Virus record (IMG/VR): IMGVR_UViG_3300027737_000005 | Coordinates: 1-41,185 of that record | Strand: one strand, 5' to 3' | Source: a virus | DNA length: 41,185 bases | Position numbers and translations under genes: made by a program | The notes under the pieces: model-generated | Seen by the model: only the letters and a program-made list of their open reading frames with translations | What the model was told of the DNA's origin: nothing | Database searches by the model: none | In this document: positions 11,615 to 41,185 of the stretch, one piece after another | Position numbering within the stretch: position 1 is the stretch's first letter | Layout: each line of letters begins with the position of its first letter

Positions 11615-11615
11615 A

Positions 11616-21024: not shown

Positions 21025-21108
21025 TCACTTTCTGTTTATCTTCCTCAACGTATTTCCAATGATCCATCCGGCGATTGCTGCCATGAACGCTACTAGGTAG
21101 GTCATCAT
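21025..21108 (-). CDS. tiny hydrophobic peptide (27 aa)
   Basis: MMTYLVAFMAAIAGWIIGNTLRKINRK lies about 40 nt downstream of polypurine array copy 1. Confidence 0.25.
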   Translation of the reverse strand: MMTYLVAFMAAIAGWIIGNTLRKINRK

Positions 21109-21143: not shown

Positions 21144-21224
21144 TAAAACCATTGCTTTCCTTTCCCTTCCTTTCCCCTCCTTTCCTCTCCTTTCCATTCC
21201 CTCTCAAAATTATCCAAACCTCGA
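21144..21224 (-). repeat. polypurine pentamer array copy 1: TCGAGGTTTGGATAATTTTGAGAG + (ANNGG)x11 + AAAGCAATGGTTTTA (gene orientation)
   Basis: Read directly. The terminal ATG opens the mini-ORF ATG GTT TTA TGA. Confidence 0.85.
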
Positions 21225-21225
21225 T

Positions 21226-21654
21226 TCAAATTGCGTAATACTCGATTTCTTTTCGGATCAACCGCGAACTCCTGCCTAGGCGATTCAGCCAACTCTGCAT
21301 GTGCACCACCTCAGATTTTGTATCATTATCAAATTTATGCATCGGCATATTTTCCGCTTGTTTCCTTCCTCGCGCATGTTGCTTGTTGCCTCTCTTAATC
21401 CTCCTCTCCAGAGCCTGCGGAGCATCTTTCAATGGCTTTATATAAAGATTTAGGTGATATGTCTGACACGGCATTCCTTTGTCCTGATCAATGAATGCCA
21501 TCAACTGCATAATCGCACTTCGATAAGCAAGTGAGTCATAATCATGTGTACCAAACAGATCTCCCAAGATCTCTTTATCTATATGATGGTTATACTTAAT
21601 CTCTCCAACAGCACACAGTTTTTCAAATATAGCCTCTTTTTCTTTCTTTTTCAT
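21226..21654 (-). CDS. hypothetical protein (142 aa)
   Basis: ORF with a plausible start MKKKEKEAIFEKL; no motif recognised. Confidence 0.5.
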   Translation of the reverse strand: MKKKEKEAIFEKLCAVGEIKYNHHIDKEILGDLFGTHDYDSLAYRSAIMQLMAFIDQDKGMPCQTYHLNLYIKPLKDAPQALERRIKRGNKQHARGRKQAENMPMHKFDNDTKSEVVHMQSWLNRLGRSSRLIRKEIEYYAI

Positions 21655-21677: not shown

Positions 21678-21866
21678 AACAAAAAAAACTAAACGCAACT
21701 TAACATAACTAAACTGAACAAAACGTAACTCAACGCAACTTAACTTAACGAAACTTAACTTAACGAAAACTAACCTAACGAAACGGAACTTAACCTAACG
21801 AAACCAAACTCAAACTAACCAAACATAAATAAACTCAACTTAACTTAACAGAACTTAACTCAACAA
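21678..21866. repeat. G-poor tandem pentamer array (NAACN)x~38 on the plus strand, i.e. (NGTTN)n on the transcribed minus strand
   Basis: aaact aaacg caact taaca taact aaact gaaca aaacg taact caacg caact taact taacg... runs about 190 nt, is intergenic, and has only about 11 G on the plus strand. Confidence 0.85.
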
Positions 21867-21869
21867 AAA

Positions 21870-22493
21870 TTATTTTGCTTTCTTAAACTCTTCTACGCTA
21901 AACGTTCCGTAATTTCCTGTAGCCATTCCAGGTCTCAAGTCGCACAAACCATATTCATAGCCGGCTGTCTCCAAAATCATTTCCAGATCTGCTTCAGGCA
22001 ACAACTCGGTATCTAGCAACAAATTAAACTTCACTTCCCACCTATGGAAAATTGGCCTGGTTTGCACCACGCGAGCCATTCCCACTACAAGATTTTCTAC
22101 AAAAACATATGTTCTTTCCCCTTCTTCGTTTACTTCACTATAAAGCGATTCTACATTTTGTCCTTTATACGGAATCAGTGGATACCCTAAAGGTTCATCC
22201 AAAATGACCGCTTTCGTCTGCTTGCCTAATCTAAACTTCTTTGCAGACGCTTTGATGCATCCTTGAAGGCATTTCGAAGGCATATATACGCCCAATTTCT
22301 TGTCGTAGTAAAGAGCGGCCTCGAACTTTAATCTAGCCAATGCTATATGATGATCGTCTGTTTTTTTCCTAATACATGTGATTTCTTTGATCTTTTTAGT
22401 CAAAGGATGAAGTGGATTGCACGCTTTATCGCAATTCATGATAAGAGGCGTCGCCCCTTTTATATGGACACTATACTTTTTTGTGTTATTCAT
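21870..22493 (-). CDS. hypothetical protein X1 (207 aa), paralogue of 34409..35017
   Basis: Shared pattern: N-terminal hIxGxxPLxMx (VHIKGATPLIMN vs ITIRGIRPLLMH) and a C-terminal Gly-rich loop (GMATGNYGTFSV vs GRSIGMGRFEI). Confidence 0.6.
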   Translation of the reverse strand: MNNTKKYSVHIKGATPLIMNCDKACNPLHPLTKKIKEITCIRKKTDDHHIALARLKFEAALYYDKKLGVYMPSKCLQGCIKASAKKFRLGKQTKAVILDEPLGYPLIPYKGQNVESLYSEVNEEGERTYVFVENLVVGMARVVQTRPIFHRWEVKFNLLLDTELLPEADLEMILETAGYEYGLCDLRPGMATGNYGTFSVEEFKKAK

Positions 22494-22598: not shown

Positions 22599-23030
22599 CT
22601 ATTTCCAAAACTCCCACCATCTTCGCCTTGAGCGCTTACCTCCTGCAACCACCTCGAGTGCCTTCACCAACAGATCTCGCATTCCGAGTATCTGGACTTC
22701 CGACCGAAAACAATGCTGTCTAACGTCTTCCAAAAATAACTTAATCTCTTCTTGCGTCTTAAATACCTCATCCAAACGTCTAAGAAACCCAGACACCTCA
22801 ATTTTTTCATTAAGCTTTTCAAGCAAGCTATTTGTGTCTGTTAAGTTTTCGACCGTTTCTTTTGTTTTTTCGTGACACTTGCGAATCGTTCTTAGGTCTT
22901 TCGCCCATGCTTCCGTCACCTCTAGAGTAATTTGGTCCAGTATTCGCATCTGCTCCTCCGTCCAATGCTGCCCTCTAGAATTCGGCCGAATCCATGGCGT
23001 CGGATCCGGCGTTTTCCTTTTTAAAACCAT
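22599..23030 (-). CDS. hypothetical protein (143 aa) whose ATG is the conserved ATG of array copy 2
   Basis: GGAAAGCAATGGTTTTAAAAAGG gives MVLKRKTPDPTPW.... The ORF-track extension upstream only reads through the polypurine array. Confidence 0.55.
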   Translation of the reverse strand: MVLKRKTPDPTPWIRPNSRGQHWTEEQMRILDQITLEVTEAWAKDLRTIRKCHEKTKETVENLTDTNSLLEKLNEKIEVSGFLRRLDEVFKTQEEIKLFLEDVRQHCFRSEVQILGMRDLLVKALEVVAGGKRSRRRWWEFWK

Positions 23031-23117
23031 TGCTTTCCTTTCCTTTCCTGTCCCTTCCTTTCCTTTCCCTTCCTTTCCATTCCCCTTCCTTCTCTCAAAA
23101 TTATCCAAACCTCGAAT
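23022..23117 (-). repeat. polypurine pentamer array copy 2, with the same 5' flank TCGAGGTTTGGATAATTTTGAGAG (here the last codons of terL)
   Basis: Read directly; ends AAAGGAAAGCAATGGTTTTA. Confidence 0.85.
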
Positions 23118-28054: not shown

Positions 28055-28983
28055 TATCCTCTCTGTTTTTCGGCTTGTTTTTCATCTTGTTCTTTAGCAA
28101 ATTTTCTTTTAGCCCAGATTTTCCACCATCCTTGTGTGATTCCGTCTTGTAGATAGGCTTCTGTGAGTATTTCGCCTTGTGCGAATTTCTTTTTTTGCAT
28201 TGCATCGAACCAATCAAGGATCAAAAGCATGTCTTTGTGAGAATGTCGAGAAGACCATTGTTGGATGGATTGATTTTTGAGAGATGATCCATCCATGAGT
28301 TTGAACGTGGCGATACGGGCAAAGACGAGTTCGAGAAGCGATTCTTCGGACGTGTTCTCCGACGATAAAGACGAGGACGTAGACGGCTTGTTTGCCTTTT
28401 GTGAGAAAGGCGATTTCGAAGGCTGTGGCGAATGTTGATAACTCGCTTGCGAGTTATCAACATTTCCACAGCCCCTAAACGAACGTACGTCTTTTTTAAA
28501 GACGATCTCTTCGTCTTCATCCGTTGTTTGTTTTTTCCCAGGAAGATTGTCTCTCTTTTGTCTCTCTTTTGTCTCTCCTCTGGTCTCACTTTCTGTCTCA
28601 CTTTCTGTCTCTCCACTTTCGTAAAATCCATTCAACAATATATTGTAGACCTGTTTTTCTCGTCTCTCTTTTTGTCTCTCTTTTTGTCTCTCCAAAATGC
28701 GCCGGCTTTGCGCCGGCACATCGCCACGTACTTTTTTATGGCTGTTCAGTCCAATGAAATGATCGATAGCATGCTCGGCTGTTGATTTAGATGTTTTTGC
28801 CTCTTTAGCTATCTCTCGAACTGATTTTTGGCATTGACCTTTCTTCAAATTTGCTTTGTTCTGATCTTCGAAGGCTGTATGCCGTAAAATAGTTATCAAA
28901 ACCATTTTATAGTCATTGGAAGCTTTTTCCCACAAAACGTGTTCGAAAAGTTCTTCCGGTATTTGGGTGAATTTTTTAGCCAT
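28054..28983 (-). CDS. replication initiator-like protein with an N-terminal winged HTH (309 aa from ATG 28983)
   Basis: AAGGAG RBS then ATG. MAKKFTQIPEELFEHVLW...SVREIAKEAKTSKSTAEHAIDHFIGL, with central RQKERQKER and ETESETESETRGETKERQKRD repeats encoded by DNA iterons. Confidence 0.5.
   Translation of the reverse strand: MAKKFTQIPEELFEHVLWEKASNDYKMVLITILRHTAFEDQNKANLKKGQCQKSVREIAKEAKTSKSTAEHAIDHFIGLNSHKKVRGDVPAQSRRILERQKERQKERREKQVYNILLNGFYESGETESETESETRGETKERQKRDNLPGKKQTTDEDEEIVFKKDVRSFRGCGNVDNSQASYQHSPQPSKSPFSQKANKPSTSSSLSSENTSEESLLELVFARIATFKLMDGSSLKNQSIQQWSSRHSHKDMLLILDWFDAMQKKKFAQGEILTEAYLQDGITQGWWKIWAKRKFAKEQDEKQAEKQRG
28549..28692. repeat. iteron-like direct repeats flanking an AT-rich segment, inside the initiator gene (candidate ori)
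   Basis: TCTCTCTTTTG x2, TCTCTCCTCTGG, TCTCACTTTCTG x2, then AT-rich 28622-28658, then TCTCTCTTTTTG x2. Confidence 0.5.
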
Positions 28984-29946: not shown

Positions 29947-30038
29947 ACTGAACCTCCTAGGTAGGTAAATTCAACATAGGCTTGCAAAAAATTACTGTAA
30001 AGATTAAGTTGAGGTTGCATTCTCCTTTTGATGGTTGG

Positions 30039-30066
30039 GCCCTCCTTAACGGGAGGGCTTTTTTTT
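30039..30066 (+). terminator. plus-strand rho-independent terminator overlapping the stop of the 92-aa minus-strand gene
   Basis: GCCCTCC-ttaacg-GGAGGGC followed by T8. Confidence 0.65.
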
Positions 30067-30324
30067 GGCGAAGTGTCTGTGAACGCAATAATGGTCAAGG
30101 TTTTTATCGTAACCTTTTAAGCACACTCCTAAATATGTGGAATTTGTTTCCAACGTGACGATATAACCCCATTGTTCTAAATCCACAAAAAATGATTCAT
30201 ATTTTAATGGTGTAAGAAAATAAGGAGAGTGTGAATGTTCGCAGAGATATTTCCATGCATCTGCTTCCAGGGGTGATTTTTTATCTAGAATAGCTAAGCA
30301 TTCTTCGCAGCAGGATGATTTCAT
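30046..30324 (-). CDS. Cys/His-rich hypothetical early protein (92 aa)
   Basis: ORF MKSSCCEECLAILDKK... Confidence 0.5.
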   Translation of the reverse strand: MKSSCCEECLAILDKKSPLEADAWKYLCEHSHSPYFLTPLKYESFFVDLEQWGYIVTLETNSTYLGVCLKGYDKNLDHYCVHRHFAKKKPSR

Positions 30325-30439
30325 AGTGGCCGAAGATCCTTTAAATAAAATAGTTTGTCAATTAAATTATCCATTATGTTACCTTTGGTGATGTATGTAG
30401 GAGTTAAACATGCGAAAAGTGATTGAAGAAATTGTGTCC

Positions 30440-30757
30440 TCAGCTACTTTTAAGATGGTTTTCAAGATTCTGGCTATCGTTGTTGGTATTTGTACTTTTT
30501 TGTTGATTGGGGCTGCTCTTTTTGTTGTTTTTCTTGGTTCTGGATAAAGTCCAGTCGGTACACTTAACGTCTCCATTAGTTGCTTCTTGGACATGCAGGG
30601 CATTTTGAAGAGATGGAAGTGTGTATCCATGAAGCCATTTTGCCATGATTGAGTAATCGATGTCTAGTTGTCTGGAAAATTTAGCGACCGAAATTTTATT
30701 GGTTTTCAGCCATAGGTGGAGCAACATTCTTGCTTTGCTGTGATATTTCTCTTGCAT
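30440..30757 (-). CDS. XRE/CI-Cro-like helix-turn-helix regulator (105 aa)
   Basis: LKTNKISVAKFSRQLDIDYSIMAKWLHGYTLPSLQNALHVQEATNGDV is an HTH pattern. The gene is divergent from the plus-strand early operon. Confidence 0.6.
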   Translation of the reverse strand: MQEKYHSKARMLLHLWLKTNKISVAKFSRQLDIDYSIMAKWLHGYTLPSLQNALHVQEATNGDVKCTDWTLSRTKKNNKKSSPNQQKSTNTNNDSQNLENHLKSS

Positions 30758-30787
30758 AAATTTTAGCCTTTTTGTTAGGATAAAGGT

Positions 30788-30811
30788 ATCTTAGCAAAAA
30801 TACACTAAGAT
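30788..30811. promoter_or_regulatory. candidate operator in the divergent early control region
   Basis: Perfect inverted repeat ATCTTAG-N10-CTAAGAT between the HTH gene (start 30757) and the first plus-strand gene (30835). Confidence 0.4.
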
Positions 30812-30834
30812 GTCAACCACAAGGAGAAAAAGCA

Positions 30835-31074
30835 ATGTACGATGAAGATGATAATTTTAGCTGGGGATGGAGCGATGAGAGAAGAGAGATTATCGAGGCC
30901 CATAAATATCAGTTTAGGGAGTTTCTGAGAGCGAAGAGAATGTATGATGCATATGTTGATGAAGAGAATGAAATGCATGAGGATGAGAAAATCGAATTAC
31001 AAGATGAATATATTAAGGAATGGCGATATAGCCTTGAGTCCGACGAATCGCTTTATGGAGGAAGTTTAAGATGA
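30835..31074 (+). CDS. acidic hypothetical early protein (79 aa)
   Basis: AAGGAG RBS then ATG; D/E-rich. Confidence 0.5.
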   Translation: MYDEDDNFSWGWSDERREIIEAHKYQFREFLRAKRMYDAYVDEENEMHEDEKIELQDEYIKEWRYSLESDESLYGGSLR

Positions 31075-31661
31075 AAGAAGAAATCAAAGAGGGATACATA
31101 AGAATATCAAGCATTTCAAGCGCTTTTGCTAATTACGGGAAAGTACCACAACATGTATTAGATCGAGCGGCTGCACGTGGCGAATGCGTGCACCGTTTGA
31201 TCTTCGATCATATCAATGATATTATGATCCCTTCCGACCGTTATGAGTTCATGGGAGATAAACTTGATGGATATTTCGAAAGTTTTCTCAAGTTTTGGAA
31301 ACGATATGAGGGAGCAAAAATCCTAATCCAAGAACAGCGCTTATATGATGATCGAGAAATGCTCACAGGAGAGCCCGATCTTCTCATTGAAACTGAAGAA
31401 GGCATCATTCTGATTGATTGGAAATGTACAAGTGCGGTAGGTAAGCATTGGATTATCCAAGCTGGTGGTTATGATAACTTGGTGATTGAGAATGGATATG
31501 GTGATATATTCAAGAGTTTATTCGTGAATTTAGACAAAAAAGGTGGGGAACCTATCATAACTGAATATGATGTGGCAAGCGCCTATGATATGTTCAATAA
31601 CGCTTTTGAATTATATAGGATTTTTTTCAGAGATCAGACATGTAACTTGGAGAATGAATAA
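31071..31661 (+). CDS. PD-(D/E)XK family exonuclease, recombination partner of the RecT-like protein (196 aa)
   Basis: GECVHRLI...GEPDLLIETEEGIILIDWKCTS carries the D...(D/E)xK nuclease motif; it lies two small ORFs upstream of the RecT-like gene. Confidence 0.6.
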   Translation: MKEEIKEGYIRISSISSAFANYGKVPQHVLDRAAARGECVHRLIFDHINDIMIPSDRYEFMGDKLDGYFESFLKFWKRYEGAKILIQEQRLYDDREMLTGEPDLLIETEEGIILIDWKCTSAVGKHWIIQAGGYDNLVIENGYGDIFKSLFVNLDKKGGEPIITEYDVASAYDMFNNAFELYRIFFRDQTCNLENE

Positions 31662-31840
31662 TGCACCCGGATGAAATATTTGATGAGGATTTACAAAGAG
31701 TTTTAGATGCATACCATGATCATATATTAGCGATGATGGAAAATACAGAAGTTGTTCCTAAAAAAACGATAGATGCTTTTGTAAAAGCTAGAGAAGAATT
31801 TAATGAAAAATATGCACCAAGTTCAAGAGAGAATGAATGA
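31661..31840 (+). CDS. hypothetical protein (59 aa)
   Basis: ATG overlaps the upstream stop (TAATG) and its stop overlaps the next ATG (ATGA). Below the ORF-track cutoff. Confidence 0.45.
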   Translation: MHPDEIFDEDLQRVLDAYHDHILAMMENTEVVPKKTIDAFVKAREEFNEKYAPSSRENE

Positions 31841-32088
31841 TGGATATTCTATTTAAAATTTCTATGTTTTTATTCGGAAGTTCTGTATTATATTTCATGC
31901 ATCATTCAATGAAACATTTTGATATATTAGATAGATATATCACAAAAGATATAACATTAGAGAGATCAGTATTAACTCAACTGGAATGTTCAGAACGTGC
32001 ATTTTTGAGACATGATGCTCGTATTGTAGAGCTAGAAACTCGGATTAAGAAAATTGAAGAAAATATAAGGGATAAAACAAATGTCTAA
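31837..32088 (+). CDS. small membrane plus coiled-coil protein (83 aa)
   Basis: N-terminal hydrophobic segment ILFKISMFLFGSSVLYFM followed by a coiled coil. Confidence 0.5.
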   Translation: MMDILFKISMFLFGSSVLYFMHHSMKHFDILDRYITKDITLERSVLTQLECSERAFLRHDARIVELETRIKKIEENIRDKTNV

Positions 32089-32896
32089 AGAATTAATCGT
32101 TAAAGAAGAAAACTTTGATCTGTTAGCTGATATTGAACTAATGCAATCAGCGGCGAAGAAACTCATGCAGACAAAACACTATCAAGCAATGGGAGAAGCT
32201 GGAATTTTTGCGATCATTCAAAAAGCAAAAAGCCTGAAGATTAATCCGATTGATGCTCTAAATGGAGGGCTTTATTTTACGCAAGGCAAAGTTGGAATGA
32301 GTGCCGAGATGATGAATACGTTAATCCGAATTCATGGGCACAGTATTCAGAAGGACTCTAGAAGTAATGACCAGATCTGTATACTGATCGGCAAGCGTGC
32401 GGATAATGGAGATACATGGATAACATCATTCAGCATTGATGATGCTAAAAGAGCTGGTATATATAATGAGAAAACTCCCTGGGGAAAGTATCCACCGAAT
32501 ATGTGTTTCAACCGGGCCCTTTCCAATTTAGCTAGGCAGCTGTTTCCGGATGTGATTAAGGGCTGCTATGAAATCGATGAATTGAAGAGTTTTGCAGAAC
32601 CTGTCAATTATAAGCAGCATATGGTCGAAGTGGAATTGCCTGAGTTGCAGAAGGATGAAATAGAGGCATTTTATAAGAATTTCAATGGGGATGAGGCATC
32701 GACGAGAGAATACGTGAAGATGTGTATGGAGAAGAAAAAATGTTCAGAGTCTAATGTGATCATCAATCTGAAAAAAGATATTGAGGCTAGCCATACGACT
32801 TATGCGAGATGGAAGGCGAAACAAAAACCTGTAGAAATCGAACCTGTAGAATCGCCGAGCATGGAAAGCGTTTCAATATTTGAGGGGGTGAAATAA
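32081..32896 (+). CDS. RecT-family single-strand annealing protein (271 aa)
   Basis: GIFAIIQKAKSLKINPIDALNGGLYFTQGKVGMSAEMMNTLI...KTPWGKYPPNMCFNRALSNLARQLFPDV resembles RecT/Bet-type annealases. Confidence 0.65.
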   Translation: MSKELIVKEENFDLLADIELMQSAAKKLMQTKHYQAMGEAGIFAIIQKAKSLKINPIDALNGGLYFTQGKVGMSAEMMNTLIRIHGHSIQKDSRSNDQICILIGKRADNGDTWITSFSIDDAKRAGIYNEKTPWGKYPPNMCFNRALSNLARQLFPDVIKGCYEIDELKSFAEPVNYKQHMVEVELPELQKDEIEAFYKNFNGDEASTREYVKMCMEKKKCSESNVIINLKKDIEASHTTYARWKAKQKPVEIEPVESPSMESVSIFEGVK

Positions 32897-32910
32897 TGGA
32901 AAGTGATATT

Positions 32911-32927
32911 GGAAAGCAATGGTTTTA
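32911..32927 (+). repeat. short copy (copy 6) of the array terminal motif GGAAAGCAATGGTTTTA
   Basis: Read directly. It lies 10 nt upstream of the ATG at 32938, preceded by only a few purine pentamers. Confidence 0.7.
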
Positions 32928-32937
32928 AGGAGGAAAT

Positions 32938-33123
32938 ATGGAATGGATGCAAATATTAGCGATTATAGCTGCAAATTTTAGTATGTTTCTTTGGTCTAGA
33001 TCCGAATCTAGGAATGATTACCGAGAAATTCGGGCTCTCATTGATGCTATTCATAAAGAAATCAAAGATTTCCACGGAAGACTTTGTGCTATTGAAGAAG
33101 GAAGAAAAAATAATGGAAAATGA
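32938..33123 (+). CDS. small TM plus coiled-coil protein, 'KDFHGRL' family member (61 aa)
   Basis: MEWMQILAIIAANFSMFLWSRSESRNDYREIRALIDAIHKEIKDFHGRLCAIEEGRK. Confidence 0.6.
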   Translation: MEWMQILAIIAANFSMFLWSRSESRNDYREIRALIDAIHKEIKDFHGRLCAIEEGRKNNGK

Positions 33124-33138
33124 ATAAGGAAAAAACCC

Positions 33139-33372
33139 ATGAATGAAAACGAGAAAGAAGAATATGTGGATAGATGCTTGAAACTAGAAAGTATTATTAG
33201 AATGGAATTGGCAAATGAAGAAATTCCAAGAGTAAGAGCGGCTGTTTTATCGACTTTGCTCACTGACGAAATAATGCATCAAGATAGATGGGAATATTGC
33301 TTAAAACAAGTAATATCTATAATCGAAAATAGATGTATTGAAGAATCTAAAAAGCCCGATATTAAAAAGTGA
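33139..33372 (+). CDS. hypothetical protein (77 aa)
   Basis: ORF in operon. Confidence 0.5.
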   Translation: MNENEKEEYVDRCLKLESIIRMELANEEIPRVRAAVLSTLLTDEIMHQDRWEYCLKQVISIIENRCIEESKKPDIKK

Positions 33373-33383
33373 GGAAAAGTCTG

Positions 33384-34049
33384 ATGGAATATCCAAAGAT
33401 ACATTCACTATATAAAAGAGAATCGCATGGAAAAAGACAACTTATTATTGGAGATCTGGCCAAAGAAGAATTCAGATCCATTATTCATTGGACAGTCACT
33501 GAAAAAGTGGACGGTACAAACATACGAATTTGTCTGGATCGCGCAACACTTATACGTGAAGGCCACAACTACATCAAATTTGGAGGCAGAACAAATAACG
33601 CTCAAATCCCTTCAAGTCTTCTGGAATATCTACAAGCCACATTTACGTACGAAAAGATGGATAAAATATTCGCAGATTCGCAATTCATCGTGTTATTCGG
33701 TGAGGGATATGGTCCAAAGATACAATCTGGTGGCTATTATCGAAGTGATGTATCGTTTATTCTGTTTGATGCATATGTGTCGGGCTGGTGGTTAGAGAGA
33801 GATAAGATCGTTCAGATAGCACACGATTTAGGCATCGATCATGTACCTTTAATTCCTTCTAGAAATGTTTTAGAGCCTGATTTATGGAATTTATATGATA
33901 TTGTCAGCCAGGTGAGATCGAAACCGCAGTCCGCGTTAGCAAAAGAATGTTATATAGCAGAGGGAATAGTCGCTCGGAGCTATCCTTTGATGTTATTTCG
34001 GAATGGAGAGCCGATTATGTTTAAGCTAAAGTGCAAAGATTTTCCATAG
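33384..34049 (+). CDS. ATP-dependent RNA ligase-like nucleotidyltransferase (221 aa from ATG 33384)
   Basis: MEYPKIHSLYKRE...WTVTEKVDGTNIRI carries motif I KxDGxN, and EGYGPKIQ follows later. GAGGA RBS lies 8 nt upstream. Confidence 0.6.
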   Translation: MEYPKIHSLYKRESHGKRQLIIGDLAKEEFRSIIHWTVTEKVDGTNIRICLDRATLIREGHNYIKFGGRTNNAQIPSSLLEYLQATFTYEKMDKIFADSQFIVLFGEGYGPKIQSGGYYRSDVSFILFDAYVSGWWLERDKIVQIAHDLGIDHVPLIPSRNVLEPDLWNLYDIVSQVRSKPQSALAKECYIAEGIVARSYPLMLFRNGEPIMFKLKCKDFP

Positions 34050-34120
34050 GAAGGGAATGGAGAGGAAAGGAAGGGATAGGAAGGGACAGGAAAGGAATGG
34101 ATGGGAAAGCAGTGGTTTTA
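34049..34120 (+). repeat. polypurine pentamer array copy 3: (ANNGG)x~13 + AAAGCAGTGGTTTTA
   Basis: Read directly. A GTG-initiated mini-ORF (VVLIRRGENG*) has its stop overlapping the start of the next gene. Confidence 0.85.
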
Positions 34121-34136
34121 ATAAGAAGAGGTGAAA

Positions 34137-34292
34137 ATGGATAAGACAAAATCGACAATGTTTTTGGAATGGATTTCAATCGTCGCCCCTGTTATTGCAT
34201 GTTCTCTTTTTCTCTACGGAGAGATAAAAGATCAAAGACAAAGAACAGATAAATTATATGAAACGATAATTGATTTAATAAAGTCTATGTAA
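34137..34292 (+). CDS. small TM protein, distant 'KDFHGRL' family-like member (51 aa)
   Basis: GAGGTG RBS then ATG. MDKTKSTMFLEWISIVAPVIACSLFLYGEIKDQRQRTDKLYETIIDLIKSM. Confidence 0.5.
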   Translation: MDKTKSTMFLEWISIVAPVIACSLFLYGEIKDQRQRTDKLYETIIDLIKSM

Positions 34293-34304
34293 ATAACTCT
34301 AGTG

Positions 34305-34385
34305 AAGTGGAATGGAAGGGAAAGGACAGGATGGGATAGGAATGGAAGGGAAAGGAATGGATGGGAAAGGAAAGCAGTGGTTCTA
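34305..34385 (+). repeat. polypurine pentamer array copy 4: (ANNGG)x~14 + AAAGCAGTGGTTCTA
   Basis: Read directly. The stop of mini-ORF VVLKNQKWKGK* overlaps the ATG at 34409 (ATGA). Confidence 0.85.
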
Positions 34386-34408
34386 AAAAATCAAAAATGG
34401 AAAGGTAA

Positions 34409-35017
34409 ATGAAACTTAAGAAAGCGACAATAACGATTAGAGGTATACGTCCTCTTTTAATGCATAAATTCAATATTTCTGTTTTGTCAACAGAACGGAA
34501 ATCGAAGAAAGGGAGTGCTGGAAATAATCCTGATGAATGGAAAGAGACCGTTTTCTGCGAAGATGATGGCACTCTTTTCATGCCTGGAGAATATTTTTTT
34601 GCATGTCTAAAGAATGGAGCAATCCATACGAAAATTGGTCGTGGGACTATCCAGAAAAAAGTGGCGGCAACTCTGCAGATCATAACAGAGAAATCTATTC
34701 TGAATCGGAAGTTACCTGGAAAATTGGATGAATTATCTGTCGAAAATTGGCCGAAAGTGGGCCAAGGTCCGGTGTACCTTGACATAAGGGGGGTGATGAA
34801 TCCTAATAGCAAAGGGCGCAATGTGCGGTATAGGGTTGCATGTACACCTGGTTGGGAATGTACTTTCGAATGTCAATGGGATGATACTATTGTGTCGTCT
34901 GATCATATGAGAGCGGTCTTTTCTGATTCAGGAATATTGGGAGGGATCGCCGATGGCAGAAGTATCGGCATGGGACGATTTGAGATTATCAGTTGCGATA
35001 TAGAAAACGTTAGATAA
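34409..35017 (+). CDS. hypothetical protein X2 (202 aa), paralogue of 21870..22493
   Basis: ATITIRGIRPLLMHKF at the N-terminus and GGIADGRSIGMGRFEI at the C-terminus; see X1. Confidence 0.6.
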   Translation: MKLKKATITIRGIRPLLMHKFNISVLSTERKSKKGSAGNNPDEWKETVFCEDDGTLFMPGEYFFACLKNGAIHTKIGRGTIQKKVAATLQIITEKSILNRKLPGKLDELSVENWPKVGQGPVYLDIRGVMNPNSKGRNVRYRVACTPGWECTFECQWDDTIVSSDHMRAVFSDSGILGGIADGRSIGMGRFEIISCDIENVR

Positions 35018-35038
35018 ATTAGATGAGAATATCGATTT

Positions 35039-35100
35039 GGAAAGGAAAGAACTGGAAGGGACAGGAAAGGACAGGAAGGGAGGGGAAAGCAATGGTTTTA
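35039..35100 (+). repeat. polypurine pentamer array copy 5: (ANNGG)x~10 + AAAGCAATGGTTTTA
   Basis: Read directly; mini-ORF ATG GTT TTA TGA. Confidence 0.85.
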
Positions 35101-35161
35101 TGAAATATAAAGAAATTTTAATTAAAGTAAAATGCCCAGAATGCTTTAGAGGAGAGAAATA

Positions 35162-35410
35162 ATGGATTGGTACCACATTTTAGGAATAATTGTCGGCAAT
35201 GCTGCGATTTTTATACCTATGTTTTTTTGGCTACGTACCGAGGCGAATTCGGATAGACGACAGATGCAGGATACGGCCGCAGCGGATAGAAGAGATCTTT
35301 TGCAGATTATAAGAGAAATTCAAGCTGAAATGAAAGATTTCCATAGCCGCCTTGAGCGAATAGATATTGAGTTCAAGGGCTATTTGATTCAAGAGGCAAA
35401 GAAGCGATAG
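35162..35410 (+). CDS. small TM plus coiled-coil protein, 'KDFHGRL' family member (82 aa)
   Basis: MDWYHILGIIVGNAAIFIPMFFWLRTEANSDRRQ...IIREIQAEMKDFHSRLERIDIE. Confidence 0.6.
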   Translation: MDWYHILGIIVGNAAIFIPMFFWLRTEANSDRRQMQDTAAADRRDLLQIIREIQAEMKDFHSRLERIDIEFKGYLIQEAKKR

Positions 35411-35420
35411 CGCCTATCAA

Positions 35421-35445
35421 AGTGGCGGTCATAACGGCCGCCACT
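35421..35445. terminator. hairpin between convergent operons (bidirectional terminator candidate)
   Basis: AGTGGCGG-N9-CCGCCACT between the plus gene ending at 35410 and the minus gene ending at 35449. Confidence 0.5.
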
Positions 35446-35448
35446 ATG

Positions 35449-35631
35449 TTAATATTCATGCGCAGAACGAGCACGCTTCTTGAGGTCTTTGGCGGCTGAG
35501 CGCGCTTCTTTTTCTTCTACTTTCTCATGCTTCTTTTTGGTACCTTTAGAATGGGCAGCTTCTTTGGAATAGTGTTTGGCATCTTTCATGAGTTTGCCGG
35601 CACATTTTTTCATTATTTTTTTGTGGACCAC
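35449..35631 (-). CDS. small lysine-rich basic protein (60 aa)
   Basis: ORF sharing nt 35631 with the upstream gene. Confidence 0.45.
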   Translation of the reverse strand: MVHKKIMKKCAGKLMKDAKHYSKEAAHSKGTKKKHEKVEEKEARSAAKDLKKRARSAHEY

Positions 35632-35867
35632 TATTTAGCCTTGTGGTGACCGTGATGATGTGGATGAGTATGGGAAGCTATCTTAGCCTTTAAAGCCATT
35701 CCTGAGTGGCTAGAATGATGTCCATGATGCTCATGGCTATGATGTCCTCCTTTAACTTCTTCTGCATGACTTAAATGATGCTTATGATGGTGTTTTGAAT
35801 GGCCCTCATCTGAGTGGTGATGTTTATGGCCTTCGTGCATATGATGCATTTTGTGTTCTTTGTGCAT
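35631..35867 (-). CDS. histidine-rich protein (78 aa, about 31 His), putative metal-binding
   Basis: MHKEHKMHHMHEGHKHHHSDEGHSKHHHKHH...HPHHHGHHKAK. Confidence 0.55.
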   Translation of the reverse strand: MHKEHKMHHMHEGHKHHHSDEGHSKHHHKHHLSHAEEVKGGHHSHEHHGHHSSHSGMALKAKIASHTHPHHHGHHKAK

Positions 35868-36064
35868 TATTTCTTCCCCTTTTTTGGAATTTTCGCGCCA
35901 GATTTTCTTGCCTCTGAAAGAGCGATCGCTATGCCCTGCTTTGGATTCGTGACCACAGGGCCCTTTTTTGAACCGCTGTGGAGCTCGCCTCGCTTCATCT
36001 CGTGCATGACCTTTTCGATCTTGGCTTTGCCTTTTGATGGCTTCTTGTGGTGTTTTTTTTCCAT
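35867..36064 (-). CDS. small basic conserved protein (65 aa)
   Basis: MHEMKRGELHSGSKKGPVVTNPKQGIAIALSEARKSG resembles a widespread small bacterial protein family. Identified from memory only, not verified. Confidence 0.5.
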   Translation of the reverse strand: MEKKHHKKPSKGKAKIEKVMHEMKRGELHSGSKKGPVVTNPKQGIAIALSEARKSGAKIPKKGKK

Positions 36065-36249
36065 TAGCCTTTTGCTCCTAGGTTCATTGGAGGGGTCGGT
36101 GAAAGTGTTTTATGCTCATATTGCTCAAAGTCTTGGAAAAGCTCTTCGCCAATTTGTTCAGTCTCCGGGACAATCTCCGGATGAGAGATTATCCATTGGC
36201 AGCCGACTGCGTATACTGCTAAAATTGCTATTGTGATGATCTTTTTCAT
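36064..36249 (-). CDS. lipoprotein (61 aa), possible spanin-like lysis component
   Basis: Signal peptide plus lipobox: MKKIITIAILAVYAVGC. Confidence 0.5.
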   Translation of the reverse strand: MKKIITIAILAVYAVGCQWIISHPEIVPETEQIGEELFQDFEQYEHKTLSPTPPMNLGAKG

Positions 36250-36452
36250 GGTTTTCTCGTTGGGTGCGGCACTTGTTCTTTCTTAATGAAAATCTGCTTT
36301 TCTGGATCGTGAGTATCTCCAATATCATCTAAGTCCGTCGGAACGATATAATGGTCTTTGGGAGGAGACCAATTATTTCCATTCATTGCTCCTTCCCATT
36401 CGATGACATTCACGACCTTTTTCGTTTCTTTATTAATAACAGCCCATCTCAT
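36246..36452 (-). CDS. small conserved phage protein (68 aa)
   Basis: AVINKETKKVVNVIEWEG...PPKDHYIVP...IGDTHD is a pattern common in small phage ORFs. Confidence 0.5.
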   Translation of the reverse strand: MRWAVINKETKKVVNVIEWEGAMNGNNWSPPKDHYIVPTDLDDIGDTHDPEKQIFIKKEQVPHPTRKP

Positions 36453-36461
36453 TGTTTACCT

Positions 36462-37514
36462 CTATGCAAATTCATAAATCCAGATTTCTCCTCTAGCACC
36501 ATTGCCGCCGGCGCCAGAATTATGTCCGTTGAGTGAACAGCCACCACCACCACCACCACCACCAGGAATACCGCCATTGCCTCCCGCTCCTGCTGCTGCG
36601 CTTAAATTTGATGCTCCTCCACTACCACCTTGACCGGCTGCTATCAATCCTCCTGTGGTAATTGCTGTACCACCAGCTGATCCATTTACACCGGCTTGTC
36701 CGGCGCCTACTGTGCCTCCTGCTGCTGCTGCGATTCGAGTATTTGTATTGCTATAATTGACCAAATAACTTCCATTGCCACCTCCATATGCAGTAGGAGA
36801 AGTACTAATACCTCCACCCCCTCCTCCTATGCCATTAGCCCCTGGACATAGTCCGGGCCCTCCTATATAACCTTCCGGAATAAGATCGGCATTATTTCCA
36901 GCTGCTCCATTGACTCCATATCCGGCGCTACTTCCGTTAAATTGGAGCTGAAATACATAATTTGAACATATAAAAGGATAAGTTCCAGATATAGAATTGC
37001 TGGAAAAGGCCCCTCCGCCCCCATATGAGAAATAATCATTGCTAGTTACATCTCCTACTAACGAATAACCTCCGGTATTGCCTCCATTCCCAGCTGTACT
37101 ATTGATCGTTATAGCTGTTCCTCCGGTTCCCCCGGCGCCTATTGTAACAGTATTGCTAACGGAAGAAAAAAGAGAAGCATCTCCCCAGTAATCTATGTAA
37201 CCAGAACCTGTTCCGCCTGCTCCTCCTGAACATGCGGTTCCAGATGCTGTCCTGCATCCCGATCCACCACCCGAACCTCCTCCCCATCCAATTATGCGAA
37301 CCATTTTGGTGTTTGTTTTAGGAGTCCAGGTTCCAGATGTTGTGTATCTTGTTATAGTTATCGTAGACGGAGGAGAATCTACATAATTAGTACCATTTGA
37401 AATTGGTACGTTTCCGCTTGCGCCAGCTCCGCTTAAAGAAGTTACGGGAACCGCGCTGAATGAACTGCTACTCGTAGATGAGTTTGGATACCCTAGGAAA
37501 AGCGTATTTGTCAA
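36462..37514 (-). CDS. glycine-rich tail-fibre-associated protein (350 aa, TTG start)
   Basis: AGAGG RBS then TTG. Long GGxGG tracts ending GGGGGGGCSLNGHNSGAGGNGARGEIWIYEFA. Confidence 0.6.
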   Translation of the reverse strand: MTNTLFLGYPNSSTSSSSFSAVPVTSLSGAGASGNVPISNGTNYVDSPPSTITITRYTTSGTWTPKTNTKMVRIIGWGGGSGGGSGCRTASGTACSGGAGGTGSGYIDYWGDASLFSSVSNTVTIGAGGTGGTAITINSTAGNGGNTGGYSLVGDVTSNDYFSYGGGGAFSSNSISGTYPFICSNYVFQLQFNGSSAGYGVNGAAGNNADLIPEGYIGGPGLCPGANGIGGGGGGISTSPTAYGGGNGSYLVNYSNTNTRIAAAAGGTVGAGQAGVNGSAGGTAITTGGLIAAGQGGSGGASNLSAAAGAGGNGGIPGGGGGGGGCSLNGHNSGAGGNGARGEIWIYEFA

Positions 37515-37523
37515 GGTTAACCT

Positions 37524-38147
37524 CTAAAGTTGAAACATTGAAAATGTTGTGTTATAGCCAAAACTTGAGCCTCCTACGGATAGAACTTTGCCAGATCCAT
37601 TGACAATTAAAACTACCTGAAAATTTAAACCTAAACCGCCATTCAAAGCCACAATTCCAGATTGACTAATGACCGAAGCATTATTTGTTGAATCGAAAAT
37701 AGCTGCAAAGTTTGCATAGGTATATTGAAAGACAAGAGTACCACTACGTTCCGTTTTTATATATCCGCTTGTATTTCCAGATAAAACACCCTGCACAACT
37801 ATCTGGACATTATATTGATAATATCCTGCTGATGGAGCCGTGAAAACACCCGTTGCAGTATTGTAGTATCCGCCATTATTAAAGTCCGTTGAATCACAAA
37901 TAAGATTGTATGATGATCCATCACCAGTCACATTTGTTTGTGTTGTGCTTAATGATGCAAAAAATCCAATATTCGGGCCACTTACAATAATCTGATTTCC
38001 TGATCCCGAAGTAGATGCGCCATTTGCACCATTTACATTCAAAACGTTTGCAGATGGAATAGCTGTTCCCGAATCTGTTACGTAGCTTGTTGCTACGTTC
38101 GATGGTACTGGACCAGACGCTTGATTAATGATGCCTGCCTGTGACAC
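37524..38147 (-). CDS. tail fibre or receptor-binding protein with a C1q/TNF-like C-terminal domain (207 aa)
   Basis: FFASLSTTQTNVTGDGSSYNLICDSTDFNNGGYYNTATGVFTAPSAGYYQYNVQIV fits the C1q globular-domain pattern. Confidence 0.55.
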   Translation of the reverse strand: MSQAGIINQASGPVPSNVATSYVTDSGTAIPSANVLNVNGANGASTSGSGNQIIVSGPNIGFFASLSTTQTNVTGDGSSYNLICDSTDFNNGGYYNTATGVFTAPSAGYYQYNVQIVVQGVLSGNTSGYIKTERSGTLVFQYTYANFAAIFDSTNNASVISQSGIVALNGGLGLNFQVVLIVNGSGKVLSVGGSSFGYNTTFSMFQL

Positions 38148-38476
38148 TAGTTCCTCACGATATATTGTGATACAACATAAATATTTCCTGTGCCGGCGCT
38201 GCCGTTCACAAAAATTTGAGTACCCTCTGGAATACCTTCAGGAGTCGGATTTCCTGATGTATCCTCATCATAAAGCCAATAACTATTTGCTGGGCATACA
38301 TCAATCGCTGTCACGCCATCTATAGAAATCGTGACCAGTGAAGTTGAGTTATTCACCATTTTTAAAATATATGAAGGATTGGCAAGAGGAACACCTATAG
38401 ATTGAAAAGAACCGTTGAGAGAAGCTGCATTGAATGTTCTCAAAGGTTCCCAGGAAATACGATTTGTATAGGCCAT
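38147..38476 (-). CDS. tail-fibre cluster protein (109 aa)
   Basis: ORF sharing nt 38147 with the next gene. Confidence 0.5.
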   Translation of the reverse strand: MAYTNRISWEPLRTFNAASLNGSFQSIGVPLANPSYILKMVNNSTSLVTISIDGVTAIDVCPANSYWLYDEDTSGNPTPEGIPEGTQIFVNGSAGTGNIYVVSQYIVRN

Positions 38477-38477
38477 A

Positions 38478-38723
38478 CTATTCCCCTGTTATAGGCTGTA
38501 TGATTGATTCTGAAAGCTGTTCTTCCTTGTTCTTAGCATCTGCTTGTGCTTTTATGTTGTCTTCGATCTGTCCTAAGAACTTTGTGAATTGAAAAAGGGC
38601 TTCTTTTGCGTAAGGTATAGGTATATCCGGATCAGCAAGAAATCGTGCTGTCCACACTTTTTTCACTTCATCGCCTTCTTTTTCTATAAATGAATATTCC
38701 AATTGGCTAAGCAATTTGTGCAT
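38478..38723 (-). CDS. small acidic protein (81 aa), possible fibre assembly factor
   Basis: ORF tightly packed after the fibre gene. Confidence 0.45.
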   Translation of the reverse strand: MHKLLSQLEYSFIEKEGDEVKKVWTARFLADPDIPIPYAKEALFQFTKFLGQIEDNIKAQADAKNKEEQLSESIIQPITGE

Positions 38724-38724
38724 G

Positions 38725-41185
38725 TTAAATCCCCATTGCTACGACGGTTATGTTGGTGACTGTTGGTGAATTTGTCCCCGCCACCTTAACATAGTAGTTA
38801 TTTGGAACGTAAGCAAAAATTGTAAAAAATGTGGCCGTTGCTACAGTAAAAGTTGGAACGGCAGTATTCGCTGTCGGAGCATTTGTGGTTCCTACTCCTA
38901 GAGTCAATGTTGCCCCTGTAGCTGCCGAAACTTGTACAACGATACTTAAAAGAACGTCATAACCGGTTGTATTTTGAGCTGCTGTACCAAGTGTCAATGA
39001 AGCTCCAAATGCACTTGTGGCGGTATTTGCTGCCACAGGAGTTGTGACGATATTACCACCGATTGTCGTAGTGGTCACATTTGTGGTCGAATTCCCGATA
39101 TTGATGGCATGGGCTGCAGCTGTACCAGTACCGATATTGATAGTCGCGGCATGTGTACCATTACCACCGGCAACAAGATTGAATGTTGGCGCTACGGTCG
39201 TATACGTACCATTAAAAATGTTTACGCTATTTGTACCACCTGTAAAGTTTCCATTGAATATATTAAAATGGTTTGTGCCTTGTGTGAGAACACCACCCAA
39301 GAAATCTGCTGTTTGGTTACCACTAGAACCAACACCACCTAAACAAACCAATGCTGTAGTAGCACCAGGAGTCGTTCCGCTCAAGATATTGACAGTTTGT
39401 GCTGCTGTGATGGATGCACCAGACGCAATATTTAGAGTCTGAGCGGATGCCGCAACACCATTTAACAAACCGACAGTCAAAGCACCTGTAGATGTACCTA
39501 CATTAATAGCTCCTGTTTGAGCAACAGCGCCTATAGTGATAACCTGGGCAGCATTGCCTCCAATACCAATGCCGATAGTGTTACCAGAGCCGGCAATGAT
39601 CGTGACAGCACCACCGGCATTAGAACCAATGTTTGTCACGTGTGCCGCACTCGTTCCTGTACCGATATTAGTTGTGCCAACGGCTGAAGCTGAACCACTA
39701 AACAAATTGAAAGATGATGCATGCGTAAATGCACCCGAAAAGATGTTAACATTAGCCGCTACTGTAGTAAATGCACCAGAGAAGATATTGACGGCATTTG
39801 TACCACCTGTAAATGCAGCATTAAATAGATTGAATGAATTGGTGCCACCTGTAGTGATACCTCCGAAGAATGTTGCGGTATTCGTTCCTTGCGAGATTGC
39901 TCCACCCTGGCAGCCAAAAACCTGGCTTCCAGCGCTACCTAAGCCGCTCATGATTGTCAATGTCTGATTAGCTGCAGGTGTTGCGCCTGCCATAATATTG
40001 ACAGCATTGGCATTGCTATTTGATGCAGCACTAGCAATCGATACCGTGTTTGCTCCGGACCCTCCAGAAATAATGACACTATTTGTGGCTGTGGAAGATC
40101 CTAGAGTAATGATACCAGTCTGTGCTGCTGCTCCAATCGTGATTGTGGCAGCTGCTGTACCTGCAATCGATGCATTTCCAGTTCCGAAAAGTAGACTTAA
40201 GGACGAAGATGATGAAACCGATCCGATCGAGATAACTTGTGCTGATGCTCCAGTACCAATTCCAATCGTATTTGTGCCGGCACCTGTACCGATATTGACA
40301 GCATTCGTCCCTGTACCTGTAACGATATTCATCGTTTTATTTCCGTTTCCAGTACCTACGTTGACTGTATTGGTACCCGTACTCGTGCCGAGAGATATGG
40401 CTCCTGTTTGAGCAGCGGCTCCGATTGTGATAGTTGCTGCAGCGTTTCCAGATATTGTTGTGTTACCACCGGATCCGGATTGTAGGGTAAGCGATGCACT
40501 TGCTGTTGTTGATCCAAGCGTAATAACGTTTGCCGCGGCATCGTTGAATAACTGGATGGTATTGCCACCACCTGTTGCTGTTATACCTCCCGCACCCGAT
40601 GCAATAGTAATTAGACCACTGGATCCTCCGATAGTCGTGGCAGCGGTTCCAGAGGCGTTTATAGATGTTGTACCAACTGATGTTAATGTTGTGAATGTGC
40701 CTGCTGCTGATGCTGTTCCTCCAATGGCCGGAGGAGATGCAAATACAGCGCTTAGATTTGAAGGTTGTACTGCAAGAGCAGTGACGCCTGGTACTGTTGC
40801 AGTTCCAGCTACAGCTTGAGCATTTGTCGCTAAATTCGTGATACCCGTCACTGTAGTTTGGGCAATGTTTGCACCAGCAAGTACTAAACTCTGGCCATAG
40901 GCGAAGACATCATTCGCAGAAGATACATATTGAGCGCTAGGCGCCGTTCCTGCCTCGGTCTGAGCAGTTGTAGCTAAATAAACTACCCCTAGATTAGTGT
41001 TAGAAGCTGGTTGGCCTTCAGGAGATGACCAATTCGAAGTGAGAGTGCCTCCAGAACTACTTTGAGACAATAGAACATATTCTCCAGAACCAATATAGAT
41101 CCACCGTGTACCTAGAGCATAATTAACGTCTTGTGCCGTCGGAGCTCTATTTTGAAAAACAACGTTTGTAACCGCATTAGCAGGC
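38725..41185 (-). CDS. tail fibre/spike protein, main part; the true gene is 38725..41086 joined to 1..149 (836 aa)
   Basis: Ala/Gly/Thr/Asn-rich beta-helix-like repeats (AAATITIGAAAQTGAISLGTSTGTNTV twice; NIFSGAFT and NIFNGNFT repeats). The frame stays open to the window end and continues at the window start. Confidence 0.75.
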   Translation of the reverse strand, partial: PANAVTNVVFQNRAPTAQDVNYALGTRWIYIGSGEYVLLSQSSSGGTLTSNWSSPEGQPASNTNLGVVYLATTAQTEAGTAPSAQYVSSANDVFAYGQSLVLAGANIAQTTVTGITNLATNAQAVAGTATVPGVTALAVQPSNLSAVFASPPAIGGTASAAGTFTTLTSVGTTSINASGTAATTIGGSSGLITIASGAGGITATGGGNTIQLFNDAAANVITLGSTTASASLTLQSGSGGNTTISGNAAATITIGAAAQTGAISLGTSTGTNTVNVGTGNGNKTMNIVTGTGTNAVNIGTGAGTNTIGIGTGASAQVISIGSVSSSSSLSLLFGTGNASIAGTAAATITIGAAAQTGIITLGSSTATNSVIISGGSGANTVSIASAASNSNANAVNIMAGATPAANQTLTIMSGLGSAGSQVFGCQGGAISQGTNTATFFGGITTGGTNSFNLFNAAFTGGTNAVNIFSGAFTTVAANVNIFSGAFTHASSFNLFSGSASAVGTTNIGTGTSAAHVTNIGSNAGGAVTIIAGSGNTIGIGIGGNAAQVITIGAVAQTGAINVGTSTGALTVGLLNGVAASAQTLNIASGASITAAQTVNILSGTTPGATTALVCLGGVGSSGNQTADFLGGVLTQGTNHFNIFNGNFTGGTNSVNIFNGTYTTVAPTFNLVAGGNGTHAATINIGTGTAAAHAINIGNSTTNVTTTTIGGNIVTTPVAANTATSAFGASLTLGTAAQNTTGYDVLLSIVVQVSAATGATLTLGVGTTNAPTANTAVPTFTVATATFFTIFAYVPNNYYVKVAGTNSPTVTNITVVAMGI
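41087..41185. repeat. terminal direct repeat copy 2 (identical to 1..99)
   Basis: Same 99 nt as the window start. Confidence 0.95.

Follow-up and report, generated by a model that had tools for sequence, protein, structure and literature searches.

The closest described counterparts of the repeat arrays reported here belong to VIPR (short for Viral Interference Programmable Repeat), which two 2026 preprints describe as CRISPR-related, phage-encoded systems of RNA-guided DNA silencing (bioRxiv 10.64898/2026.04.26.720920, 10.64898/2026.04.26.720927). The prototype is type II, known from Escherichia phage SUSP1 and a Pseudomonas fulva prophage and represented by the structure PDB 36pp. In this study, we analyzed a 41,185-nucleotide stretch of viral DNA from IMG/VR (record IMGVR_UViG_3300027737_000005; hereafter the window, meaning the stretch at its full length), in which arrays of phased pentamers lie between genes on both strands. 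These arrays are very probably the guide-RNA (vrRNA) genes of VIPR systems, and the feature is most likely real and functional but of an already known kind, with variant handle words.

According to the preprints (bioRxiv 10.64898/2026.04.26.720920,.720927), Vipr is an early-branching RAMP of ~20 kDa, minimal in form, with an RRM core, a G-loop and a thumb. The vrRNAs are ~100 nt long, co-purify with Vipr and consist of 9–16 YNNGG repeats, in which GGY is conserved and NN hypervariable, followed by an invariant 3' tail. Vipr forms a right-handed filament with one protomer per repeat, which sequesters the bases of GGY; pairing with double-stranded DNA (dsDNA) is left to the NN dinucleotides, every third target base being skipped, and binding represses transcription. 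In the SUSP1 complex (PDB 36pp), H17, R138, D177, W178 and R179 contact the RNA, W178 stacking on G2, and K33 contacts the target; the position-3 pocket (E71, M72, C173, T175, R179) is described as purine-excluding. Natural targets, matched at a threshold of at least 80% matches, are mostly competing phages, prophages and satellites. An accessory vap gene adjoining vipr encodes a predicted DNA-binding protein, nuclease or helicase. Seven types are recognized, staggered and ribozyme-separated arrays also occur, and the repeats NNNGG, YNNNG and NNNNG are allowed as “related consensus” forms, to which GGA or GTT repeats might belong. Published Vipr loci number roughly 670. VIPR has been put forward both as an ancestor of CRISPR and as a programmable platform, very small in size, for DNA binding.

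Repeat Arrays in the Window

The 15-mer AAAGCARTGGTTYTA occurs in six exact copies in the window, with no mismatches, where 0.47 would be expected by chance; none of 100 shuffles reached six. Four copies are on the plus strand (32913, 34106, 34371 and 35086) and two on the minus strand (21144–21158 and 23022–23036), and every copy is intergenic and oriented with the local genes. This is the pattern reported in a preliminary description of the window. That description gave each copy a run of about 10–15 strict five-nucleotide units. Counted in register from the motif, phased GGA-NN pentamers precede five of the six copies, in runs of 9–13 units (12 at 34049, 13 at 34309 and 10 at 35039; on the minus strand, 9 at 21200 and 10 at 23083), and the copy at 32911 has just one unit. 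Over the 54 GGA-NN units, positions 1–3 carry 2.0, 1.87 and 2.0 bits of information and positions 4 and 5 carry 0.71 and 0.62; GG is kept in 53 units and A at position 3 in all 54. Runs with a perfect period of 5 reach 16 units in the window and no more than 5 in 100 dinucleotide-preserving shuffles. The pentamer pattern is therefore real and non-random, and it is located where the preliminary description put it. That the arrays are noncoding and do not form a CRISPR array also held up. They lie between genes (open reading frame (ORF) lists place ORFs of 41 and 52 aa across them), they contain only 5-nt repeats, and the sole Cas family represented among the proteins scanned near arrays was the Vipr RAMP. 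A CRISPR array has direct repeats of ~25–40 nt with unique spacers of similar length and is usually accompanied by cas genes.

The tail GCA(A/G)T GGTT(T/C) TA is identical in all six copies. On the plus strand, candidate vrRNA c3 (34049..34120) comprises 12 GGA-NN units and the tail GCAGT GGTTT TA, c4 (34309..34385) has 13 units and the tail GCAGT GGTTC TA, and c5 (35039..35100) has 10 units, the third being a deviant GAACT, and the tail GCAAT GGTTT TA. The remaining plus-strand element, c1 (32911..32927), is a single GGAAA unit followed by GCAAT GGTTT TA; because it has only one unit, we consider it a solo tail. It has no guide tract and is probably a remnant. On the minus strand, cA (21144..21223) has 9 units and a tail at 21144–21158, and cB (23022..23114) has 10 units and a tail at 23022–23036. 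An identical 23-nt leader box, CGAGGTTTGGATAATTTTGAGAG, precedes both minus-strand arrays (21201–21223 in cA and 23092–23114 in cB). No structure is predicted for the repeat tracts, which is what an RNA kept extended by protein should show. Folding of the tail yielded no stable structure, with z-scores mostly within noise, and an Rfam search of the window returned nothing for the arrays and no family of the CsrB/RsmZ type.

We noted that within c4 (34309–34372) a block of 6 units (30 nt) is duplicated (2.1 copies with 91% match in Tandem Repeats Finder). If so, either the target is itself a tandem repeat or the array has grown via duplication.

The minus strand carries an array with a different repeat word, located at 21686..21868 and comprising ~36 phased GTT-NN pentamers. 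Positions 1–3 of these units carry 1.58, 2.0 and 2.0 bits and the NN positions 0.2; three units read TTT, not GTT. The GTT-NN array probably holds at least two vrRNAs.

Two Vipr Proteins

Between c4 and c5 lies a gene for a 202-aa Cas7/Csm3-like RAMP (34409..35017, plus strand), which we identify as vipr; c4 is directly upstream of it and c5 directly downstream. That a Cas7-like gene lies between the plus-strand arrays was overlooked in the preliminary description, as were the leader box and the GTT-NN array. A second vipr gene, for a 207-aa protein of the SUSP1-like clade (21870..22493, minus strand), is directly upstream of the GTT-NN array. Both proteins match PHROG 4652 (phrog_4652), a family without assigned function, at E = 7.5e-13 for the 202-aa protein and E = 9.8e-42 for the 207-aa protein. 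Against the “SUSP1 Vipr protein” chain PDB 36pp_D, the 202-aa protein scored E = 1.2e-3 as a single sequence and 9.9e-11 as a clade profile, and the 207-aa protein 6e-30 and 9.2e-49, respectively. The two clades are themselves homologous, with an hhalign probability of 99.2%. AlphaFold2 models of the 202-aa and 207-aa proteins (predicted local distance difference test scores, pLDDT, of 88.5 and 89.7) had as their best Foldseek matches Csm3/Cas7, at ~1e-8, and Csm3/Cmr4/Cas7, respectively, and the nearest PDB structural neighbours of both models were RAMPs from CRISPR effectors of types III and VII.

Residues that contact RNA in SUSP1 Vipr are largely retained, as judged by sequence alignment and not from a complex structure. 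R138, D177 and R179 are kept in both window proteins, as R142, D182 and R184 in the 202-aa protein and R146, D185 and R187 in the 207-aa protein. H17 and K33 are mostly conserved; H17 is kept in the 202-aa protein (H19) and is Asn in the 207-aa protein. The W178 column holds Gly in the 202-aa protein and Leu (Leu186) in the 207-aa protein. These changes at contact positions appear to fit the altered repeat words. We presume that the GGA-NN vrRNAs are partnered by the 202-aa Vipr and the GTT-NN array by the 207-aa Vipr. We also considered the 207-aa Vipr as the binder of the GGA arrays, since 32%-identical homologs in loci L042 and L104 adjoin GGA arrays, and rejected this pairing because all of its close orthologs carry GTT arrays only.

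Downstream of the GTT-NN array is a gene for a 142-aa protein (21226..21654, minus strand), a candidate vap gene on synteny alone. Homologs with 27% identity lie at the same position in L135 and L136, and a database search with the 142-aa protein returned itself as the sole match. Neither this protein nor the 143-aa array neighbour matched Pfam, PHROG or NCBIfam. Beside the 202-aa vipr gene there are only small transmembrane (TM) proteins and nothing comparable to the 142-aa gene.

Arrays and vipr Genes in Related Viruses

A scan of IMG/VR for the pattern (GGANN)7GGA returned more than 120 loci. Most were plain microsatellites, and a subset had degenerate NN and several arrays per locus. When all window proteins were compared with the array loci by tblastn, only the 202-aa and 207-aa proteins recurred, directly adjoining degenerate arrays. 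Profile hidden Markov models detected a Vipr encoded in the fetched stretch at 10 of the 13 loci with at least six distinct NN versus none of 107 simpler repeats (Fisher p = 2e-12; 2e-10 after de-duplication). In these relatives the arrays abut vipr and are co-oriented with it, and arrays flank vipr on the same strand in L042, L104, L061, L062, L055, L113 and L135–L140, and in the IMG/VR loci as well.

L138 has a Vipr 82% identical to the 202-aa protein. Relative to c4, the array upstream of its vipr keeps 16 of 16 GG positions, the tail (GCAGAGGTTTT) and the vipr start, whereas NN agreement is only ~6 of 16, the NN of L138 being more diverse. Orthologs of the 207-aa protein in L135–L137 (70–81% identity) have GTT-NN arrays on both sides, with different NN and no GGA arrays; all 13 sampled members of this clade carry GTT-NN arrays. 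For the 202-aa clade, 58 loci from IMG/VR were compared; read on the strand of the gene, their constant word was GGC, GGT, GGA, GTT, GTC or GCA, and the tail core GGTTTT(A/T) recurred whatever the repeat word; L174, for example, has AGCAATCAATGGTTTT. Tails in the relatives read GCAGAGGTTTT, AACGGTTTTA or CAAGGTTTTA, with GAGG, ACGG or AAGG where the window has ATG or GTG, and many arrays are followed by another array and not by an ORF. In IMG/VR, the exact terminal motif GGAAAGCARTGGTTYTA gave 10 matches, which we attribute to chance because none has an array upstream.

Several of the loci showed further features. In L055, positions 10500–11778 hold 17 tandem GGA-NN arrays, most with a linker ending AACGGCTGTA(A/G)T, and in L113, positions 612–2406 hold 9 arrays with the linker GGCAGGCGC; a divergent Vipr gene adjoins the arrays in each. 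A tRNA-Gly(UCC) in L138 (1340–1429) and a tRNA-like gene in L062 (6870–6956) both start within 0–2 nt of a vrRNA tail variant, GG(T/C)TCAC. As a tRNA directly follows the tail in these two loci, the arrangement suggests that vrRNA 3' ends in this clade might be made by tRNA-processing enzymes; tRNAs are not mentioned in the VIPR preprint (bioRxiv 10.64898/2026.04.26.720920,.720927). In eight high-GC viral loci from IMG/VR (L015, L022, L032, L085, L109, L115, L120 and L123), a conserved GAGGGCTCGACGAGGCCTCACCCCC box is followed by 8–9 polypurine GGA(A/G)(G/A) pentamers, with no Vipr ORF in the fetched stretches. These look like a different class of phased GGA repeat.

The Arrays as Probable vrRNA Genes

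The five GGA-NN arrays of 9–13 units match the published definition of a vrRNA: 9–16 pentamers with a conserved trinucleotide, variable NN and a 3' tail. Further, c4 and c5 abut and are co-oriented with the 202-aa gene, and the GTT array is placed in the same way with the 207-aa gene. That the arrays are vrRNA genes thus draws directly on the anatomy of the repeats, on the two Vipr proteins and their folds, on the co-occurrence and co-orientation of arrays with vipr in genomes that are not related, and on a constant scaffold with variable NN. Filament assembly, DNA reading with a 1-nt skip and transcriptional silencing would be carried over by analogy with the systems of SUSP1 and P. fulva (bioRxiv 10.64898/2026.04.26.720920,.720927). 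By that analogy, each array would be transcribed on the strand of its neighbouring genes as a short RNA of 9–13 pentamers, in which GGA would be the constant handle and NN the informative bases, with the tract closed by the 3' tail GCA(A/G)U GGUU(U/C) UA. The 202-aa Vipr would polymerise along this RNA, one protomer per pentamer, hiding GGA and presenting NN; the NN dinucleotides would jointly read a dsDNA target with every third base skipped, and binding would block transcription of the target. On the minus strand, the 207-aa Vipr and the GTT-NN array would make up another system, independent of the first.

Compared with the SUSP1 and P. fulva systems, the window systems are alike in having a single ~200-aa, phage-encoded Vipr RAMP, pentamer guides with a constant 3' tail, and arrays on both sides of vipr on the same strand. 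They differ in their handles, which in place of GGY are GGA, with a purine at position 3, or GTT, with only one G, and in a short tail (~12–15 nt, core GGUUUUA) with no predicted pseudoknot. They also have six vrRNA-type elements spread over two regions, two divergent Vipr paralogs within 41 kb, an A-biased NN, and no recognisable DNA-binding vap gene. The backbone of Class 1 CRISPR-Cas effectors (Cas7/Csm3 on crRNA) shares the RAMP fold, one protomer per RNA segment of fixed length and periodic base flipping by the thumb. VIPR, by contrast, has no repeat-spacer array, no Cas6, Cas5 or large subunit and no adaptation genes, and its period is 5 nt with three bases sequestered and a non-contiguous guide, compared with 6 nt and one flipped base in Class 1.

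The preliminary description had also suggested that the arrays are a multivalent target for an RNA-binding protein, in the manner of a CsrA sponge or of TRAP. The multivalent part agrees with the published mechanism of one protomer per pentamer, but the partner would be a Vipr filament and the RNA a guide, not a sponge. The TRAP-trp leader (11 GAG/UAG triplets with 2–3-nt spacers) and the CsrA-CsrB pair are also multivalent RNAs with triplets spaced ~5 nt apart, each bound by one subunit of an oligomer, and GGA is the core motif of CsrA too. In VIPR, however, the variable spacer bases have a function, that of recognising DNA, and the RNA leads to targeting of DNA in place of attenuation or sequestration. 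No homolog of TRAP (MtrB) or CsrA was found among the array-adjacent proteins scanned and no terminator after the arrays; the regulatory-RNA proposal was not supported.

A number of observations weigh against the arrays being vrRNA genes. The GGA handle has a purine at position 3, which the SUSP1 pocket is said to exclude, and because A occupies this position in every one of the 54 units, we do not place the window systems under the GGY code of SUSP1. The NN of the GGA arrays in the window have low complexity and a bias to A (72% A at position 4, and no C at position 5), and each array has only 4–7 distinct NN, which is unusual for guides. No pseudoknot was predicted for the tail, where a weak hairpin of 5 bp (AAAGC/GUUUU) is the most that forms, and family scans detected no recognisable vap gene near the window vipr genes. 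No canonical promoter or terminator was found around the arrays, as sigma-70 and intrinsic-terminator scans did not exceed shuffle expectation; the RNAs may be processed out of longer transcripts.

Searches for guide targets, which used exact 11-unit patterns under the 1-nt-skip rule, also count on this side. There were no matches in IMG/VR for c3, c4, GTT units 25–35 or GTT units 9–19, and none in metagenome contigs, which were searched with c4 and GTT units 25–35 only. A genome collection (596 Gb), searched with c3 only, gave one match of 11 units (22 bases), at 2102–2133 of L142, in a DnaB-like ATPase ORF of a Clostridia metagenome-assembled genome from mouse gut. This match is probably due to chance. 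It falls in an AT-rich, Lys-rich, low-complexity coding stretch in which the skipped bases occupy codon position 2. The expectation is 0.07 under uniform composition, and AT-rich DNA raises it ~10-fold per site; mouse gut is also an implausible habitat for the window phage. Within the window, no self-targets rose above the control skip rules, of which the skip-3 control trivially recovers the arrays themselves. These searches are insensitive because they accepted exact matches only.

Alternative Explanations

Of the other explanations, the one that fits best is that the arrays are vrRNA-like without being sequence-specific guides. They could be decayed relics, assembly or titration sites by which free Vipr is regulated, or cis-acting leaders through which Vipr would control the small genes downstream. 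Such roles would account for the low-complexity, A-biased NN, the solo tail, the position of four of the six copies directly ahead of small TM-protein genes, the failure to find a target and the internal duplication of c4. They agree poorly with the state of the repeats, as the intact units (GG in 53 of 54, A in 54 of 54) and six identical tails argue for ongoing selection, and at the corresponding positions the NN of the ortholog in L138 are more diverse; moreover, the missing target comes from searches limited to exact matches. We consider a non-guide role improbable.

The preliminary description had favored translation, with tandem Shine-Dalgarno (SD)-like GGA sites recruiting the 30S subunit and a Met-Val-Leu (MVL) mini-ORF coupling translation to the gene downstream. 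The window has the appearance of such a start cassette: GGA/GGAGG-like purine runs lie upstream of genes, and the MVL mini-ORFs are present literally as described, the ATG or GTG of the motif opening short ORFs that in some cases overlap the next start. In relatives, however, the homologous tails have no start codon (GAGG, ACGG or AAGG), and with the ATG/GTG not conserved, the mini-ORFs appear to be by-products of a conserved RNA tail. Sister loci have the same architecture with GGC, GGT, GTT, GTC or GCA repeats, which are not SD-like, arrays follow one another without an ORF between them (as in the 17 arrays of L055), and presence tracks vipr, not gene starts. A start cassette is very improbable, and by sequence comparison appears largely refuted already.

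Mycobacteriophage start-associated sequences (SAS), a 13-bp motif directly ahead of start codons without a pentamer array, and their extended form (ESAS), which had been offered as an analogy for recombination boundaries, are likewise repeated intergenic motifs, oriented with transcription and near gene starts, but the conserved part in the window is an RNA tail without a conserved ATG and the elements track vipr. A DNA-level element (H-DNA or a two-tetrad G-quadruplex (G4), slippage of a microsatellite, or a boundary at which recombination shuffles cassettes) is the least probable of all, since the 45–65-bp polypurine tracts of the window GGA arrays are not kept in relatives, where NN is any base, pyrimidines included, and the words GTT, GTC and GGC occur, three strict and two free positions are unlike a slippage product, and the array strand is always that of vipr; the cassette-like small TM-gene paralogs after several arrays fit a recombination boundary, for which we found no other evidence, the arrays tracking vipr and not gene starts.

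Handle Specificity and a Possible Pair of Orthogonal Systems

If the arrays are vrRNA genes, then two Vipr paralogs with different handle words suggest two orthogonal VIPR systems in one 41-kb phage, the 202-aa protein with GGA-NN and the 207-aa protein with GTT-NN, in which one or two residues of the pocket would determine the handle code. We put this forward tentatively, as a possibility that falls somewhat short of an even chance. In the 202-aa clade, the C173-aligned column (G178 of the 202-aa protein) holds Gly or Gln in seven of eight GGA-type loci versus none of 38 loci with other words, counts that carry no correction for phylogeny; the 38 have a pyrimidine at position 3 in all but one, which is GCA-type. 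A blind prediction made from this column held for L199, which has Gln there and carries GGA-dominant arrays; L161 and L162, with Gly, have no clear array, and the prediction could not be scored for them. Ala in this column was rejected as a discriminator of repeat type, since it occurs in both the GGA-type L174 and the GGY-type L149. Gly or Gln at this position might open the position-3 pocket to adenine.

The second column of interest is that of W178. In the 207-aa clade it holds Leu in all 13 GTT-type members, by alignment and likewise uncorrected for phylogeny. It is aromatic in seven remoter GG-type relatives (L210–L212, L042, L104, L067 and L039), and Asn, Met or Lys in three divergent GGA-type loci. 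With Leu186 at this position in the 207-aa protein, the aromatic residue that stacks on G2 may have been lost along with the second G. We treat these residue–handle correlations as hypotheses on specificity. If they are correct, natural orthogonal Vipr/vrRNA pairs and handle-reprogramming residues would be in hand, and the GTT-NN code, in which G1 is kept and G2 lost, may fall outside the repeat classes given in the preprint. Orthogonal pairs, if confirmed, could be multiplexed in one cell.

What would be new in the window is an uncultured, podovirus-like phage with two divergent VIPR systems, whose GGA and GTT handles are unlike the structurally characterised GGY. For annotation, phased pentamer arrays with two free positions would be better read as probable vrRNA genes than as low-complexity sequence or spurious ORFs.

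Genome Context and Other Features

The window represents the whole or the greater part of a phage genome, and a near-identical metagenomic contig of 41,227 bp exists. Its genes include those for a terminase large subunit, DNA methyltransferases, an exonuclease/RecT pair, an RNA ligase and a P22-type portal. A megablast of positions 30000–41185 found no match among GenBank phages, and a tRNA search found none in the window.

Small TM-protein paralogs follow four of the six GGA elements. On the plus strand, a 61-aa TM and coiled-coil protein is encoded after c1 (32938..33123), and its paralogs, which have an N-terminal TM helix and a coiled coil, lie after c3 (34131–34292) and c5 (35162–35410); a further paralog is at about 21025–21105 on the minus strand. 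Homologs adjoin GTT arrays in L135 and L137. None of these small proteins matched Pfam, PHROG or NCBIfam. Approximately 130 nt downstream of cA is an int-alpA RNA (RF02996; 20944–21013, minus strand), the sole Rfam match, which scored 41.3 bits against a gathering score of 35.8.

Elsewhere in the window, type I restriction-modification genes, hsdM (516 aa) and hsdS (434 aa), are located at 13455–16302 on the minus strand, and there is at least one further DNA methyltransferase, at 24733–26019. CT-rich tandem repeats with a 12-nt period (TGTCTCTCTTTC, ~5.7 copies, and a second block) occupy 28547–28692, in or beside a 342-aa minus-strand ORF. A 78-aa ORF (35631–35867, minus strand) is extremely rich in His and Lys (MHKEHKMHHMHEGHKHHHSDEGHSKHHHKHH...) and could encode a metal-binding protein.

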